A stretch of 16,225 nt of DNA. Origin: Candidatus Moanibacter sp. GTDB lineage: Bacteria; Verrucomicrobiota; Verrucomicrobiia; Opitutales; UBA2987. The position numbers were made by a program, and so were the translations under genes. The notes under the pieces were generated by a model that was not told where the DNA came from, made no database searches, and saw only the letters and a program-made list of their open reading frames with translations. The stretch covers positions 1-16,225 of the forward strand of contig CBDCEW010000005.1 in the NCBI GenBank assembly GCA_965215885.1, read 5' to 3'. Shown in pieces: positions 2,040-13,513 of the stretch; the stretch's first letter is position 1; each line of letters opens with the position of its first letter.

Positions 2040-3422
2040 ATGAAAGACAAAAAATCTTACCAACTGAATCCTTCGATAGATCGTTTAACTCTGCGTCTGG
2101 TCCTGCCCGAAGAGCAGGAGCGATTCAATGATCTATTGAAACAACATCATTATTTACACAGTGCGGGCAGCGCAGGAGAGACCCTGCGCTATGTGGCGCA
2201 GATCGACGGGCAATGGATGGGCCTGCTCTTGTGTGGGGCCGCATCCTACCGGCTGAAGGATCGAGACGAATGGATCGGGTGGGACGGGGCGCAACGGCAT
2301 GCACGATTGAAACTGGTAGTACAGAACCGGCGTTTTCTGATTTTGCCCTGGGTGGATCTTGCAAATTTGGCCTCCAAGACGTTGGGTATGTGCCTGAGAG
2401 TCTTAGCCGATCACTGGCAGGAGGCTTTTGGCTATCGTCCCTTAGTAGCGGAAACGTTCGTGGACCCACAGATTCACCGGGGCACTTGCTACGAAGCGAG
2501 CGGGTGGACGCCCTTGGGCTTGAGCGCGGGATATGGCCGCCAACGCGAAGATTTCTATCAACGCCATGAGCGTCCCAAGCAGATCTGGGTCAAACCCCTC
2601 AAGGCTAATGCCCTTGAGCTTTTGCGCGCTTCAGGGCCATTGCCCGCGGCACAGAGCCAGGCGCTCAATGAAACCGATAACTCCCATGCGGTCTGCCTCA
2701 AAGTGGAACAGATGAGCAGCCTGTGGGAACGCTTCAATCAGATAGAAGACTTCCGTCGTAAAGCGGGCCTTAGATATCGGCTCGCCACGGTCCTGAGCAT
2801 GATTGTGCTCGGCACGATGTGCGGCAAACAGACCCTCAAGGGCATCGTGCGCCTGGCCCATCATCTCAATCAAGCCCAATTGCGCGCCTTACGCTCCTGG
2901 AAAAACCCCAAAACAGGCCGCTATAAGGCCCCTTGCTATGATGTCTTCTATCGGGTCTTGCAAAACGTAAAGGCCGAGCTCTTCGATAAAACCCTCACCG
3001 AATTCATCTGCTTACAAGACGGCTGTTTGCCCCGCGATATTGCCGTCGACGGCAAGACCCTCAAAGGCACAAACACCGAAGAATCAAAGGCTCTGCACCT
3101 GGTGGCCGCAGTCGATCACCAAAGCGCTCAAACCTTAGCCCAAGTCGCTACCGCCGATAAATCCAACGAGATCACCGCCGCCCAGACTCTCTTGCGAAAG
3201 ATGCCCATTTTGGACGGCTCCACCTTCACCTTCGACGCCATGCATAATCAAAAAGAAACTGCCCACATCGTCGTCGAAGAACTCAGTGCTGACTATGTTA
3301 TTCAAATTAAAGACAATCAGCCCAACATGCATCAATACGCTCAGAATCTCTTCAGCTCCACCCCCTTTTTCTCCACCAAACCGTGGACAATGACCATGGG
3401 CGACTCGAAATACGTCAAATAG
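2040..3422 (+). CDS. ISAs1 transposase ORF A: DUF4338 (DruA-like) domain + DDE-associated domain + first part of the DDE core
   Basis: DUF4338 motifs HHYL…LRYVA, RDEWIGW, NRRFLILPW, NLASKTL, ETFVDP…GTCYEASGW. ISAs1 motifs DFRRKAGLRYRL, IAVDGKTLKG, KSNEITAA, TFDAMHNQKE, DYVIQIKDNQP. Confidence 0.9.
   Translation: MKDKKSYQLNPSIDRLTLRLVLPEEQERFNDLLKQHHYLHSAGSAGETLRYVAQIDGQWMGLLLCGAASYRLKDRDEWIGWDGAQRHARLKLVVQNRRFLILPWVDLANLASKTLGMCLRVLADHWQEAFGYRPLVAETFVDPQIHRGTCYEASGWTPLGLSAGYGRQREDFYQRHERPKQIWVKPLKANALELLRASGPLPAAQSQALNETDNSHAVCLKVEQMSSLWERFNQIEDFRRKAGLRYRLATVLSMIVLGTMCGKQTLKGIVRLAHHLNQAQLRALRSWKNPKTGRYKAPCYDVFYRVLQNVKAELFDKTLTEFICLQDGCLPRDIAVDGKTLKGTNTEESKALHLVAAVDHQSAQTLAQVATADKSNEITAAQTLLRKMPILDGSTFTFDAMHNQKETAHIVVEELSADYVIQIKDNQPNMHQYAQNLFSSTPFFSTKPWTMTMGDSKYVK
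3361..3370 (+). other. Candidate programmed slippage/frameshift site CCCCCTTTTT
   Basis: Lies in the overlap of ORF A with the -1 frame, which is open from 3311. It falls between the KDNQP motif (frame 0) and the HGRLEIR motif (-1 frame). Confidence 0.6.
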
Positions 3423-10289: not shown

Positions 10290-10439
10290 ACGTTTTATAG
10301 CAGGGAACGCGCGCCACCCCGGCACAAGACCGGGGCAGCCAGGAATCAAAGGCACGCTAAAAACGTACTACGGCAGGGCTTCGGAGGGGCACGGCAGGGC
10401 AGGTGAGAGATACGGTGATAAAAAGGATATAACTCTCAC
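10290..10439. repeat. Cluster of short inverted and direct repeats in the binding protein-permease spacer
   Basis: ACGTTTTATAGC (10290-10301) pairs with GCTAAAAACGT (10356-10366) around the hairpin CCCCGG-CACAAGA-CCGGGG (10317-10335). ACGGCAGGGC occurs twice, 21 bp apart (10370, 10391). GTGAGAG…CTCTCAC spans 10403-10439. Confidence 0.45.
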
Positions 10440-10538
10440 GCAAGTAGGTCTTTTAGAGTTGGTAGGGGGGACGACTGCAGAGAATGATGATTTGATAGGT
10501 AGTTTGATCAATGCCGAAGGTGAATTTGGAAAGTAGGA

Positions 10539-11612
10539 ATGACTAACTTGGTCCTTAAACGCTTTTACTGGATGGTGCCCACTTTGTTGGCAATCTCCTT
10601 CCTCTCTTTCGCGCTCATCCAATTGCCTCCGGGAGACTATCTGACTTCCTATATCGCGGCATTGGAAGAACAGGGAGAACCTGTGGCCGAAGAGCGGGTG
10701 GCAGCCTTGCGCCATCGCTTCGGTCTGGACCGGCCTTTTTTGCTGCAATACATCCTCTGGCTCAACAACCTGTTACCCTTCGGCTTTGACCGACAGGAAG
10801 GCGGCGGCTACCTGCGGCACGGGGACGGAGTTTTCAATTGGCCCCGGTTCAAATGGCCGGACTTGGGCTTTTCCTTTGAGTGGAACCGACCCGTGGGTGA
10901 GCTGATCGGTGAGCGCATCCTCCTGACCATTGTCATTTCCATCGCCACCATTCTCTTTACCTGGGCCCTGGCCATCCCGATCGGTATCTATTCGGCGCTG
11001 CGCCAGTACTCCTGGGGCGATTATTGCTTCTCTGTCCTGGGCTTTGTTGGCTTGGCTACGCCCAATTTCCTTCTGGCTCTCATCTTCATGTACCTGGGTT
11101 ACTCATATTTTGGCATAAGCCCCGGCGGTCTGTTCTCCCCCGGCTACCAGGAGGCCCCCTGGTCCCTGGCTAAATGTGCCGATCTGCTGGCCCATTTGTG
11201 GATTCCGGTGATCGTCATCGGCACCGAAGGAACTGCCGGACTCATCCGAATCATGCGGGGCAATCTGCTGGACGAGATCCCGAAGGAATATGTGCAGACG
11301 GCACGGGCCAAGGGCGTGCACCCGGTCAGATTGATTCTCAAGTATCCGGTGCGCGTGGCCTTGAATCCCCTCATCAGCACCGACGGGTGGTTGCTTCCCA
11401 GCATCGTATCCGGGTCGGTGATCGTCGCCGTGGTCCTTGGTTTGCCCACCACCGGTCCGCTCTTGCTGCGCTCGCTACAGAGCCAGGATATGTATCTGGC
11501 GGGGTCGATGATCATGATTCTGAGCTTTCTGACGGTGATCGGAACCCTCGTTTCGGACCTACTCCTGCTGTGGCTCGATCCGCGCATCCGCTTTGAAGGA
11601 GGAGGCCGGTGA
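10539..11612 (+). CDS. ABC transporter permease, DppB/OppB-like
   Basis: Motifs IQLPPGDY, FGLDRPFLLQY, DLGFSF, IPIGIYSA, EAA-loop region RGNLLDE…YVQTARAKG and SDLLLLWLDPRIR. Confidence 0.95.
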   Translation: MTNLVLKRFYWMVPTLLAISFLSFALIQLPPGDYLTSYIAALEEQGEPVAEERVAALRHRFGLDRPFLLQYILWLNNLLPFGFDRQEGGGYLRHGDGVFNWPRFKWPDLGFSFEWNRPVGELIGERILLTIVISIATILFTWALAIPIGIYSALRQYSWGDYCFSVLGFVGLATPNFLLALIFMYLGYSYFGISPGGLFSPGYQEAPWSLAKCADLLAHLWIPVIVIGTEGTAGLIRIMRGNLLDEIPKEYVQTARAKGVHPVRLILKYPVRVALNPLISTDGWLLPSIVSGSVIVAVVLGLPTTGPLLLRSLQSQDMYLAGSMIMILSFLTVIGTLVSDLLLLWLDPRIRFEGGGR

Positions 11613-11619
11613 TGGGGAT

Positions 11620-11709
11620 GTCATTTGCGCCTTTCGGCGCGTCAAAGGCTGCCTCCGGCGGTGTCAGTGACGCCATTCCGGCGCGTCATTTGGCGCTAAC
11701 GCGCTGTTA
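11620..11709 (-). repeat. Left array: 4 units of GTCA-NNN + variable hairpin (TGAC + hairpin when read on the - strand)
   Basis: GTCA at 11620, 11641, 11663, 11685 and GTTA at 11706 (spacing 21, 22, 22, 21). Hairpins on the + strand: GCGCC-TTTC-GGCGC, GCTGCC-TCC-GGCGGT, ACGCC-ATTCC-GGCGC, GGCGC-TAAC-GCGCT. Confidence 0.85.
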
Positions 11710-11738
11710 CATAATGAAGAAATTGAAGGGTATGGAAA

Positions 11739-12098
11739 ATGAAACTTGAGGAGTTAGAGGTTTATCAGATGGGAATGGAGATTGGCGATCAGGCGTGGTC
11801 AATTGTTCAGAAATGGAATTACTTCGCGAAAGACGCAGTGGGCAAGCAACTAATAAAAGCCGCAGATTCTATTGCGGCCAATATCAGTGAGGGGTACGGC
11901 CGTTACTATTACAAAGAGAACAGGCAGTTCTGCTACTACAGCCGCGGCGCGGCTTTCGAAACCCTTACATGGATTACGAAGGAGAAGAATCGAAAACTAA
12001 TTTCCGAGCTGGAGTTCAGTGTTCTCAAGAAGGACCTTAACACATTTATCATCAAGCTCAACCGCTATATCCGATCGATCGGCCCCACCGATGACTAA
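11739..12098 (+). CDS. Four-helix-bundle protein (TIGR02436 / 23S rRNA IVS protein / Avd-like family)
   Basis: 119 aa with family motifs LEELEVYQ, KQLIKAADSIAANISEGYGR and FCYYSRGAAFETLTW. Visibly more AT-rich than the flanking permeases. Confidence 0.93.
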   Translation: MKLEELEVYQMGMEIGDQAWSIVQKWNYFAKDAVGKQLIKAADSIAANISEGYGRYYYKENRQFCYYSRGAAFETLTWITKEKNRKLISELEFSVLKKDLNTFIIKLNRYIRSIGPTDD

Positions 12099-12234
12099 TG
12101 AGAACTGACGCGAACGCAGTGAGCTTTGACACGTCGATAGGCGCCCATGACGCGAACGCAGTGAGCCAATGACGATGAGCGAAGCGAATTCAATGACGCT
12201 GCCGGAGGCAGCCAATGACGCCCAGGAACTGGGC
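12089..12234 (+). repeat. Right array: three tandem 7-mers (NNNTGAS) followed by 6 units of TGAC + variable hairpin
   Basis: TGAC/TGAG at 12092, 12099, 12106, 12127, 12148, 12170, 12194, 12216 (spacing 7, 7, 21, 21, 22, 24, 22). Hairpins in order: GCGAAC-GCA-GTGAGC, ACGTC-GATA-GGCGC, GCGAAC-GCA-GTGAGC again, GATGAGC-GAA-GCGAATT, GCTGCC-GGA-GGCAGC, GCCCAG-GAA-CTGGGC. Confidence 0.88.
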
Positions 12235-13305
12235 TCCCTCTCCCAGTGGCAGCTCATGAGGCTGAGATTTCGCCGGCACCGCCTCGCGGTATGGTCCGGA
12301 TTTATTGTATTGGCTTTTTACCTTGTAACCCTTTTCTGTGAATTCATCGCCCCCTACTCCCTTGCCGACCAGCACATCACCCATCTTTACGCTCCACCCC
12401 AACCGGTGCGCTTCATTGGGTCCGACGGCCTCCACTTGCGACCCTTTGTCTACGGTCTCAAGGGCGTCCGCCACCCTCAGACCCTGCAAAAACTGTATGT
12501 CGAGGACCGGAGCCAGTTCTATCCAGTGCGATTTTTTGCTGAGGGACCGCGCTATCGCCTGTGGGGCCTGATCGATTCCAATCTCCACCTTCTAGGCGTC
12601 GATCCGGGCGGGACCCTGTTTCTCTTCGGCACCGATTCGCTGGGCCGCGACCTGTTTTCCCGTATAGTCTACGGGGCACGCATCTCGCTTACGATCGGTC
12701 TTATCGGGGTGGCGCTTACATTCGTCTTCGGCCTGACTGTGGGTGCGGTTTCGGGCTACTTCGGTGGCTGGCTCGACAATCTAATCCAGCGCTTCATCGA
12801 GATCCTGCGCTCCTTTCCCACCATCCCCCTCTGGATGGGCCTGTCGGCAGCCCTCCCGGTCACCTGGTCGCCGCTGCAGATTTACTTTGGCATTACCGTA
12901 GTGTTGTCCTTTTTGGGTTGGACCGGTTTGGCCCGGGTCGTGCGCGGCAAGATCCTATCGCTGCGCGAAGAAGACTACGCCACCGCCGCGCTCCTGGCCG
13001 GGGCAAACCGCACGCGTATCATACTGTTCCACTTGTTGCCCGGCTTTACCAGCCATATCGTCGTGAGCGTGACTCTCGCGCTACCCGGTATGATCCTGGG
13101 AGAAACCGCACTCAGTTTTCTCGGACTCGGGCTGCGTCCGCCCATCACCAGTTGGGGCGTATTACTGCAGGAAGCGCAGAATGTACAGGCTGTGGCCCTC
13201 CATCCCTGGCTCCTCACGCCGGCTCTCTTCGTCATCCTGGCGGTCCTGGCCTTCAATTTTGTCGGGGACGGTTTCCGCGACGCAGCCGACCCCTACGCCA
13301 ATTGA
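12169..13305 (+). CDS. ABC transporter permease, DppC/OppC-like (start uncertain: ATG 12169, 12175 or 12193, all inside the repeat array)
   Basis: Motifs SQWQLMRLRFRRHRLA, LFGTDSLGRDLFSRIVYGARISLTIG, ARVVRGKILSLREEDY, ETALSFLGLG…SWGVLL and FNFVGDGFRDAADP. Confidence 0.95.
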   Translation: MTMSEANSMTLPEAANDAQELGSLSQWQLMRLRFRRHRLAVWSGFIVLAFYLVTLFCEFIAPYSLADQHITHLYAPPQPVRFIGSDGLHLRPFVYGLKGVRHPQTLQKLYVEDRSQFYPVRFFAEGPRYRLWGLIDSNLHLLGVDPGGTLFLFGTDSLGRDLFSRIVYGARISLTIGLIGVALTFVFGLTVGAVSGYFGGWLDNLIQRFIEILRSFPTIPLWMGLSAALPVTWSPLQIYFGITVVLSFLGWTGLARVVRGKILSLREEDYATAALLAGANRTRIILFHLLPGFTSHIVVSVTLALPGMILGETALSFLGLGLRPPITSWGVLLQEAQNVQAVALHPWLLTPALFVILAVLAFNFVGDGFRDAADPYAN

Positions 13306-13513
13306 TGATCGACTTAACTCCGTTTGCGCCAATTCGGTGTACCGATGTCTCTCAATATCCGGGCTGGCGGTAGGCCCGAGAATGTATGGCGCAAGCGTTG
13401 AATGGGGAAGAAGCAGGCCGAGTGATTGAGCCGCGAAATCTGGGTAGTCTCAAGGATATGACGCGACGGAATTGGGAGCGATTTATGCAATGGCGATCGC
13501 CCGCTTCGCCCAT

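Follow-up and report, generated by a model that had tools for sequence, protein, structure and literature searches.

A four-helix-bundle gene between complementary repeat arms in an opp operon: a candidate transposase-free selfish cassette

The window analysed here, a 16,225-nucleotide (nt) stretch of contig CBDCEW010000005.1 (contig C5 in our numbering) from the 6.36-Mb Candidatus Moanibacter sp. assembly GCA_965215885.1 (105 contigs, 53% G+C), carries a cassette lodged between an oppB/dppB-type and an oppC/dppC-type permease gene (dppB and dppC hereafter). The cassette consists of a gene for a 119-amino-acid (aa) four-helix-bundle protein of the PF05635/TIGR02436 family and 2 flanking arms of short repeats, which are complementary to each other and whose core motif is specific to the clade of the encoded protein. 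We lean, with modest confidence, towards regarding it as a representative of a widespread kind of transposase-free selfish gene cassette that resembles the intervening sequences (IVSs) of 23S rRNA and in which the arms would form a stem around the gene.

Complementary arms enclose a single gene

The order of genes in this part of the window is an SBP_bac_5 solute-binding gene, dppB, the 119-aa open reading frame (ORF), and dppC (Table 1). A core search returned the repeats and the cassette exactly where the original prediction, a reading of the sequence alone, had placed them between dppB and dppC. The arm core is of the GTCATT type on the left and of the complementary AATGAC type on the right, with successive GTCA cores spaced by 21, 22, and 22 nt in the left arm and successive TGAC cores by 14, 21, 21, 22, 24, and 22 nt in the right arm, where additional TGAG cores keep heptamer phase at 12099, 12120, and 12162. 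As predicted, the right arm opens as heptamers within the final codons of the gene; it also contains a 42-nt internal duplication, detected by a repeat search (12105-12146 and 12147-12188). The hairpins between the cores are small and G+C-rich, with GAA, GGA, or GAAA loops in the right-arm orientation. A hairpin had been proposed for every unit, which proved correct for all 4 units on the left and for 2 or 3 on the right, the hairpins of the remaining right units being weak.

The exceptional property of the arms is their complementarity to each other rather than the hairpins that each of them contains. Of the 26 positions in the segment 11641-11666, 22 agree with the reverse complement of 12194-12219, in line with the earlier reading, and a repeat search found 2 inverted pairs between the arms (Table 1). 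The arm-to-arm duplex has a predicted energy of −111.4 kcal/mol, compared with −73.0 ± 5.8 kcal/mol (lowest value, −89.1) in 300 shuffles. In the predicted fold of the 671-nt cassette RNA, 61 of the 93 left-arm bases pair with the right arm, and the ensemble pairing probability of the left arm is 0.48 with the right arm versus 0.25 within the arm itself. The pairing pattern is likewise found in an unrelated cassette of the same genome (on contig C94, described below), the arm-to-arm duplex of which reaches −56.3 kcal/mol, compared with −31.5 ± 4.8 in shuffles. Chains of at least 4 TGAC cores at a spacing of 19-25 nt occur 4 times in the 6.36-Mb genome, 2 of them being the arms of the window, 1 belonging to a paralogous cassette on contig C90 and 1 being a chance-like site; 3 locally shuffled genomes contained 2, 0, and 0 such chains.

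Both arms abut the flanking stop and start codons. The start of dppC is probably ATG 12169 (or 12175): the frame from these codons is maintained in the paralogue on C90, which begins with GTG, and a similar N-terminus is encoded at an empty junction of a sister genus (locus L022 of genome G006). The last 3 right-arm units, from 12169 onward, constitute the first ~24 codons of dppC and, therefore, the insert proper extends from ~11613 to 12168; the assignment of the right array to the cassette stands up to 12168, its last 3 units being dppC coding sequence. The cassette holds a single ORF and neither a transposase nor a recombinase, and no target-site duplication is present in the window, both as predicted. 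A search of 11300-12600 against Rfam yielded a chance-level small RNA as its sole match, a scan of 10400-13400 found no promoter-like site, and a terminator scan found none in the arms. In relatives of the cassette, GGAGG occupies the position of the Shine-Dalgarno-like motif of the spacer.

Table 1. Coordinates of the cassette, its arms, and the adjoining permease genes in the window
Feature	Position	Strand	Details
oppB/dppB-type ATP-binding cassette (ABC) permease gene	10539..11612	+	Pfam BPD_transp_1 and BPD_transp_1_N; best NCBIfam match Opp4B; TGA stop at 11610-11612
Left arm, four units of GTCA + ~3 nt + 5-6-bp hairpin	11613..11705	+	Cores at 11620, 11641, 11663, 11685
Left halves of two long inverted repeats	11620..11670	.	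Partners 12124-12151 (28 nt, 82%) and 12190-12228 (39 nt, 79%)
Spacer with purine-rich Shine-Dalgarno-like GAAGGG ahead of ATG	11706..11738	+	Read from the sequence
Four-helix-bundle gene, 119 aa, PF05635/TIGR02436	11739..12098	+	Family-model matches
Right arm, TGAC cores	12092..12240	+	Cores at 12092, 12106, 12127, 12148, 12170, 12194, 12216
oppC/dppC-type ABC permease gene	12169..13305	+	Pfam OppC_N from residue 25

The arm core follows the clade of the protein

The same core surrounds relatives of the protein in other genomes. A metagenome scan returned 80 loci with proteins 53-68% identical to that of the window; after removal of 5 duplicates and of 14 loci whose flanks were too short, 61 remained, each flanked by 150 nt or more on either side. 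Requiring 3 or more GTCA within 200 nt upstream and 3 or more TGAC downstream, we found the upstream core at 49, the downstream core at 51, both at 44, and either at 56 of the 61 loci, compared with 2.5% (upstream) and 2.9% (downstream) of 815 control windows. A scan of named genomes returned 79 loci, 73 of them usable, from Planctomycetota, Ignavibacteriota, Bacteroidota, Calditrichota, Desulfobacterota, Verrucomicrobiota, and Marinimicrobia, with corresponding counts of 59, 50, 46, and 63 (861 control windows: 1.7% and 2.6%). The reverse polarity is rare, being found at 6 and 2 loci of the metagenome set and at 2 and 2 loci of the named-genome set. The polarity, GTCA upstream and TGAC downstream, is thus fixed across relatives residing in unrelated operons. 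The neighbouring genes are both co-oriented with the small gene in 103 of 140 loci and both opposed to it in 4.

In most relatives the arms are plain GTCATT-type heptamers; in others the core is combined with a small stem closed by a GAA, AAA, GGA, or GCA loop, and a locus from Verrucomicrobia (L110) resembles the arms of the window. This range from plain heptamers to core-plus-minihairpin units fits the original prediction that the arms look like hairpins placed between heptamers. Core spacings peak at 7-8, 10-11, 14-16, and 20-22 nt, so that the predicted phasing at 21-22 bp, about 2 helical turns, applies to the window and represents one end of the spread. Stems of at least 5 bp are present in 11 of 132 inter-core segments (12-26 nt), compared with ~0.5 expected from shuffles. 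Among the minihairpins with GAA-type loops is the heptamer GCGAAGC, an unusually stable DNA minihairpin.

Some sub-clades have cores of their own. The core is shifted in Mucilaginibacter (L171, L184), where it reads GTTCATT/AATGAAC, and Dyadobacter loci (L149, L173, L176) have 10-11-nt units ending in CATGAC; judging from these sequences, the shifts look like gradual co-divergence of arm and protein. Ignavibacteria (L122, L123, L143, L158) carry cassettes of the same clade with the same downstream frame in several genera, which reads by eye as a nuoD-nuoE junction; in L122 and L158 the apparent ATG of the downstream gene lies inside an ATGAC core.

Other clades of the family also have periodic arms, built on other cores. 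Of the 151 genomes sampled from the phylum, 105 contained a PF05635 match. We took 30 top loci, one per genome, and dropped 3 for short flanks (n = 27). A 7-nt periodicity above the 95th percentile of the controls was detected in at least one arm of 22 loci and in both arms of 17, and a lag of 7 was the best one in 21 upstream and 18 downstream arms. None of the 27 loci has the TGAC/GTCA core and their cores differ among themselves; a core is often common to sister proteins (L193/L194, L186/L191, and the NNNNAGT group L185/L187/L189), and core-plus-hairpin units with another core occur in some loci (L208, L200, L210). The arm core is thus specific to the protein clade, and this contrast between clades (44/61 and 46/73 versus 0/27) is a firmer result than the 6-mer test reported below. 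The recurrence of the core around relatives in unrelated operons, its absence from the other clades, and the extent of the tract shared by the 2 cassette copies of the genome, which comprises arms and gene, support the proposal that gene and arrays form one unit.

The encoded protein

The predicted family assignment was confirmed with scores of 80.6 bits against PF05635 (cut-off 33.8) and 77.7 bits against TIGR02436 (cut-off 24). An AlphaFold2 model consists of 4 helices with a predicted local distance difference test (pLDDT) score of 96.7. In Foldseek searches the model matched 2GSC (XCC0516; template-modelling (TM) score 0.91, root-mean-square deviation 1.1), 2RLD (BT_0352; TM 0.79), and Avd, the four-helix-bundle accessory protein of diversity-generating retroelements (DGRs; 4DWL, TM 0.75/0.83), as well as chains of a DGR ribonucleoprotein; the Avd-like fold that had been proposed is thus upheld. 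A search of the PDB with the single sequence gave no matches, and a profile search led to 2GSC and 2RLD, the entries of which contain 5 chains each. The ratio of nonsynonymous to synonymous divergence (dN/dS) between the small genes of C5 and C90 is 0.11, demonstrating purifying selection on the gene.

The shared fold raises the question of whether the gene is the Avd of a leftover DGR, which we consider extremely unlikely. Unlike in a DGR, reverse transcriptase (RVT_1) matches are confined to contigs C92 and C37, with none on C5 or C90, and no template/variable repeat pair is present in 11560-12300, the part of the window searched for it (where no direct repeat exceeds 28 nt). The protein is ~7% identical to Avd, and both its sequence and its fold are much nearer to the non-DGR proteins 2GSC and 2RLD, despite the structural matches to Avd and to the DGR ribonucleoprotein.

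Copying between paralogous operons and turnover at the junction

Contig C90 carries a paralogous dppB-cassette-dppC arrangement, with a small protein 90% identical to that of the window and arms of the same kind, 7 units on the left and 4 units plus 2 plain heptamers on the right; this copy is flanked by an imperfect direct repeat, ~17-19 nt, of the dppC start. Synonymous divergence (dS) between C5 and C90 is 0.39 for the small gene versus 1.55 for dppB and 1.42 for dppC, and the tract of high identity extends from 11613 to ~12250, covering the arms and the gene and including the dppC N-terminus. The gene is thus far younger than its flanks, and the arm-gene-arm unit has been copied between the paralogous operons. 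The arms of the 2 copies differ through indels of whole units. The dppC tree unites C5 with G006_L010 and C90 with G006_L016, which means that the operon was duplicated before the 2 genera split.

In genome G006, from the sister genus, the orthologue of the C90 junction has GGAGACG-type heptamer arms around a short stretch that is probably a gene remnant, its first 20 residues matching the N-termini of the family weakly, and the orthologue of the C5 junction keeps remains of the right arm, its upstream side being rearranged. Empty dppB-dppC junctions, in which stop and start codons overlap, were found on contig C64 of the window's genome and at G006 L022 and G056 L013, in line with the claim that the 2 genes are normally adjacent and in further support of gene and arrays being one unit. 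No near-identical further copies of the cassette exist in the genome, both of its copies being at opp junctions. Across 151 loci, the longest sequence repeated directly in the two flanks usually measures 7-10 nt. As for known vehicles, no phage record matched, 2 cyanobacterial plasmid matches were distant, and IMG/VR contained 5 distant relatives, none of the close clade, which is thus rare on known vehicles.

A third opp operon, on C94, carries a distant member of the family (29% identity in the alignment) between arms of plain heptamers, which are of the CGAGTT type on the left and complementary to it on the right, with the right arm inside the dppC N-terminus. Three paralogous opp operons of the genome therefore have a cassette at the same junction; judging from their sequences, these cassettes represent different protein clades with different arm cores. 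The genome contains 16 PF05635 matches, 13 of them above the cut-off, and most of the remaining copies also adjoin short tandem repeats with other cores.

The left arm of the C90 cassette is an open frame of ~70 codons, which begins in an ATGA overlapping the dppB stop and terminates in another that overlaps the start of the small gene; the matching frame in the window runs from GTG 11608 to TGA 11748-11750. Such a frame through the arm may reflect translational coupling, or chance, as GTCA arrays hold few stops.

The position of the cassettes invites the view that they are a host regulatory device of the opp/dpp operon, with the arrays controlling dppB-dppC coupling or attenuation and the small gene being a passenger. 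In its favour, the dppC start is overlain by the right arm, for which pairing is predicted, ATGAC cores supply both ATG and TGA, the left arm on C90 provides the linked open frame just described, and the same junction is occupied in 3 paralogous operons. We nevertheless judge this view very improbable: relatives in unrelated operons have the same arms, as at the Ignavibacteria loci and in many other contexts, most members of the cassette clade reside outside opp operons, an insert is dispensable at other opp junctions, and the 3 opp cassettes belong to different clades with different arm cores.

Heptamer arrays elsewhere in the genome

Tandem Repeats Finder reported 124 heptamer-type arrays in the genome. 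Seven of them lie within 300 nt of a PF05635 match, compared with ~0.2 expected by our own estimate from the share of these loci in the genome (~12 kb of 6.36 Mb), which corresponds to a ~30-fold enrichment. Three of the 4 inverted array pairs of the genome enclose no gene; generic heptamer arrays therefore also occur alone. Unlike these and other dispersed heptamer repeats, the TGAC arrays are confined to the 2 cassette copies and the chance-like site. Cyanobacterial short tandemly repeated repetitive (STRR) sequences and small dispersed repeats provide examples of small hairpin repeats inserted within heptamer arrays; assignment to this class was rejected, the TGAC chains not being dispersed.

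Solitary arrays are what would be expected if the arms were functionless, i.e., slippage-prone repeats and corrected quasi-palindromes around a small tolerated gene with an unrelated cellular role. The highly variable length and unit number of the arms and the negative outcome of the 6-mer co-variation test (see below) are also compatible with this explanation, which we nonetheless consider improbable. The core and its polarity are kept across proteins 53-68% identical, in many phyla and different operons, and are absent from other clades; neutral sequence would not last that long. The enrichment of arrays beside PF05635 matches also counts against functionless arms.

Several other repeat structures were noted in the genome. 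A family of array hairpins, in which heptamers of the GACGAAG/CGACAAAG type and their complements surround a short loop, is dispersed in it (G000 C72:9600-9900, C101:129100-129450 and 130170-130450, C56, C96, and C104:66000-66700) and is also seen after dppC on C90 and after dppB at C94:95601. These array hairpins border a two-domain or truncated PF05635 subfamily and are also found without such genes. Gene-less palindromes at G000 C104:27600-27970 and 28740-28900 consist of 4 CTTAGTC-type units, a loop, and 4 GACTAAG-type units; two such palindromes precede a two-domain PF05635 gene and one follows it. Near-perfect, very long heptamer arrays are present at C80:69157-69406 (36 copies), C105:38524-38924 (56 copies), and C104:327732-327887 (22 copies), together with ~120 shorter ones with many different units. 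Genes of the oppB type without a following oppC were seen at C94:95601 onward, C2:27872, C97:150797, and C57:779, one of them leading directly into a GGTCAGA-type heptamer array and array hairpins; this could be due to rearrangement at such junctions or to an assembly break. Elsewhere in the window, positions 2040-3422 (+ strand) encode a 460-aa ORF with an N-terminal DruA-like (Druantia) domain followed by DDE_Tnp_1_assoc and DDE_Tnp_1, an unusual fusion.

A proposed selfish cassette acting through RNA or DNA

In the reading that we favour, the cassette sits in sense orientation in the stop/start junction of oppB and oppC; given this orientation and the lack of any promoter-like site in it, co-transcription with the operon is most likely. 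The arms would then pair in the transcript, producing a long stem that loops out the gene together with its ribosome-binding site, a layout as in the ORF-bearing IVSs of 23S rRNA, the stem of which is cut by RNase III, and we infer that the cassette stem would be cut in the same manner. The encoded protein probably binds the stems or hairpins of the arms, by analogy with the Avd pentamer, which grips an RNA stem-loop, and the unit would persist and spread as a selfish module.

A number of results weigh against this reading. Folded singly, the arms of the window are no stabler than shuffles (z = −1.8 and −0.7), and other arms were not exceptional in the same test either (z = −1.4 and +0.5). Among 63 loci, the sense arm duplex was the better one at 24 and the antisense duplex at 39 (Wilcoxon p = 0.35); an RNA-specific G-U pairing signal in the arms was accordingly dismissed, duplex stability having no strand bias. 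Neither was there a bias between G-T and A-C mismatches in arm stems, in a tally limited by a background of ~8 one-mismatch hairpins per kb everywhere. Perfect stems of at least 6 bp occur across the clade at 1.34-1.35 per kb in arms versus 0.96 in controls, so that long perfect hairpins are only ~1.4-fold enriched in its arms. The number of cores per arm has a mode of 4, with uncorrelated counts on the left and on the right across loci, and the idea of one core per subunit of a pentamer is unsupported by this arm size. As many as 117 of the 124 heptamer arrays are not adjacent to a PF05635 match. In a Mantel test, 6-mer similarity of the arms correlated with protein identity at r = 0.34, compared with 0.30 for distal DNA, and within the other clades at r = 0.014, with 848 of 2000 permutations as high; 6-mer co-variation of arm and protein was rejected as confounded by base composition. 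Finally, ordinary gene conversion, with the conserved flanks as anchors, could explain the copy event between C5 and C90, and the arms are equally compatible with a role at the DNA level and at the RNA level.

The last point leads to the strongest competitor, a DNA-level mobile element in which the arms are long composite terminal inverted repeats or single-stranded DNA hairpins serving as recombination ends for the four-helix-bundle protein or for a host or trans-acting enzyme, RNA pairing being incidental. It would be at ease with arm pairing that has no strand bias, with minihairpins closed by GAA-type loops, GCGAAGC included, and with arms that vary by whole-unit indels; the copying of the unit between paralogous operons, the different cassettes held by orthologous junctions, and the imperfect direct repeat bordering the C90 copy point in the same direction. 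A mobile element of this type should, however, come with a recombinase, which the cassette lacks, with a target-site duplication, of which the 7-10-nt flank matches give no general sign, and with near-identical additional copies, which are absent from the genome; the strong bias towards sense insertion (103 versus 4 loci) is also unexpected for it, unless expression of the gene is itself required. We regard a DNA-level element as rather unlikely.

Sequencing-run data, searched as Logan assembled contigs, contain the cassette in 3 runs from 3 studies. A joint between 11602 and 12229 also appeared in these data; it probably belongs to another paralogue or organism, because one of its sides comprises only 24 letters and the contigs are ~86% alike. 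A metatranscriptome contig of 209 nt is identical to 11412-11619 and ends 7 nt beyond the dppB stop, at the first left-arm unit, and no RNA contigs cover the small gene; both observations come from assembled contigs of a single study and are weak, and the run data as a whole speak neither for nor against processing.

A broader proposal is that PF05635 pentamers and clade-specific arms constitute a self-contained, transposase-free selfish element, in which the protein recognises the stems or hairpins of its own arms, as RNA or as single-stranded DNA, and the complex drives both processing and copying into hairpin-like junctions. This one system would be the shared origin of 23S rRNA IVSs, many heptamer arrays between genes, and the gene-less array palindromes of bacteria. 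We put this forward tentatively, considering it rather unlikely.

Relation to known elements and implications

The closest known counterparts are the IVSs of 23S rRNA. The part of the Coxiella burnetii study that bears on them describes an IVS with an S23p ORF and a 28-bp terminal stem cut by RNase III, with 3 tandem heptamers starting at the 5′ cut, just upstream of the ORF (PMC4990558); by the citations in the same text, ORF-bearing IVSs also occur in Leptospira and others. The cassette shares with them an ORF of the same family (S23p/23S_rRNA_IVP), complementary termini that can form a long stem, tandem heptamers adjoining the ORF, and the lack of a transposase. That text classes the IVS as selfish, with no known means of moving (PMC4990558), a view that we take of the cassette as well. 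Unlike the IVSs, which reside in helix 25 or 45 of 23S rRNA, the cassette is located at the stop/start junction of a protein-coding operon, its arms are core-plus-hairpin arrays of ~90-150 nt instead of a 28-bp stem, and its right arm also encodes the first residues of the downstream protein. The cassette thus falls outside the class of 23S rRNA IVSs by location, yet most likely works like one. Membership of the transposon or miniature inverted-repeat transposable element (MITE) class was rejected: inverted ends are present, but there is no target-site duplication, no transposase, and no large number of dispersed copies.

The comparison with Avd concerns the manner of binding. According to the sections of the preprint on the DGR ribonucleoprotein (8UB7) that deal with it, all 5 Avd protomers hold an 11-bp, tetraloop-capped RNA stem-loop, and Avd-type stem-loops are predicted in 207 of 278 DGRs, GNRA loops being common in cyanobacteria (bioRxiv 10.1101/2023.10.23.563531). 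In the DGR RNA described there, distant upstream and downstream segments pair and loop out the part between them, a likeness to the predicted cassette fold that adds to the common four-helix-bundle fold of the proteins.

Intergenic heptamers are documented in Xanthomonas (GGGAATC) and Nostoc (GGGGA(T/C)T) in passages of PMC4692102, and in Beggiatoaceae (TAACTGA) in passages of PMC4679880. Like these, the arms are tandem 7-nt units between genes, sometimes as inverted pairs; unlike in the cassettes, the passages of the 2 papers that were searched link the heptamers to no four-helix-bundle gene. Our literature search found 6 papers naming the family and no published link of it to flanking repeat arrays, save the heptamers described in the Coxiella IVS. 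In PMC10910872, a figure legend includes the family with proteins linked to arrays of the CRISPR (clustered regularly interspaced short palindromic repeats) type, which may reflect repeat finders picking up such arms. To these systems the window adds the arm composed of a core and a variable hairpin and the specificity of the core for a clade. It also provides a dated copying of the unit between 2 paralogous operons, shows that orthologous and paralogous junctions can hold different cassettes, and has an arm within which the downstream gene begins.

The locus and its relatives tie together 2 standing questions, the function of the S23p/23S_rRNA_IVP/TIGR02436 family and the excess of intergenic heptamers in bacteria. 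They also supply testable material: a protein clade with a defined arm core (GTCATT/AATGAC), variants ranging from heptamers to hairpins, the dated copy event, and cultivable carriers of the clade, such as Dyadobacter fermentans and D. beijingensis (loci L149 and L173), with a precedent in the Avd-type pentamers that grip RNA stem-loops. If the protein does bind its own arms, the cassettes would represent a new kind of small selfish module inside operons, and they would be a source of insertions misread by annotation pipelines and repeat finders.

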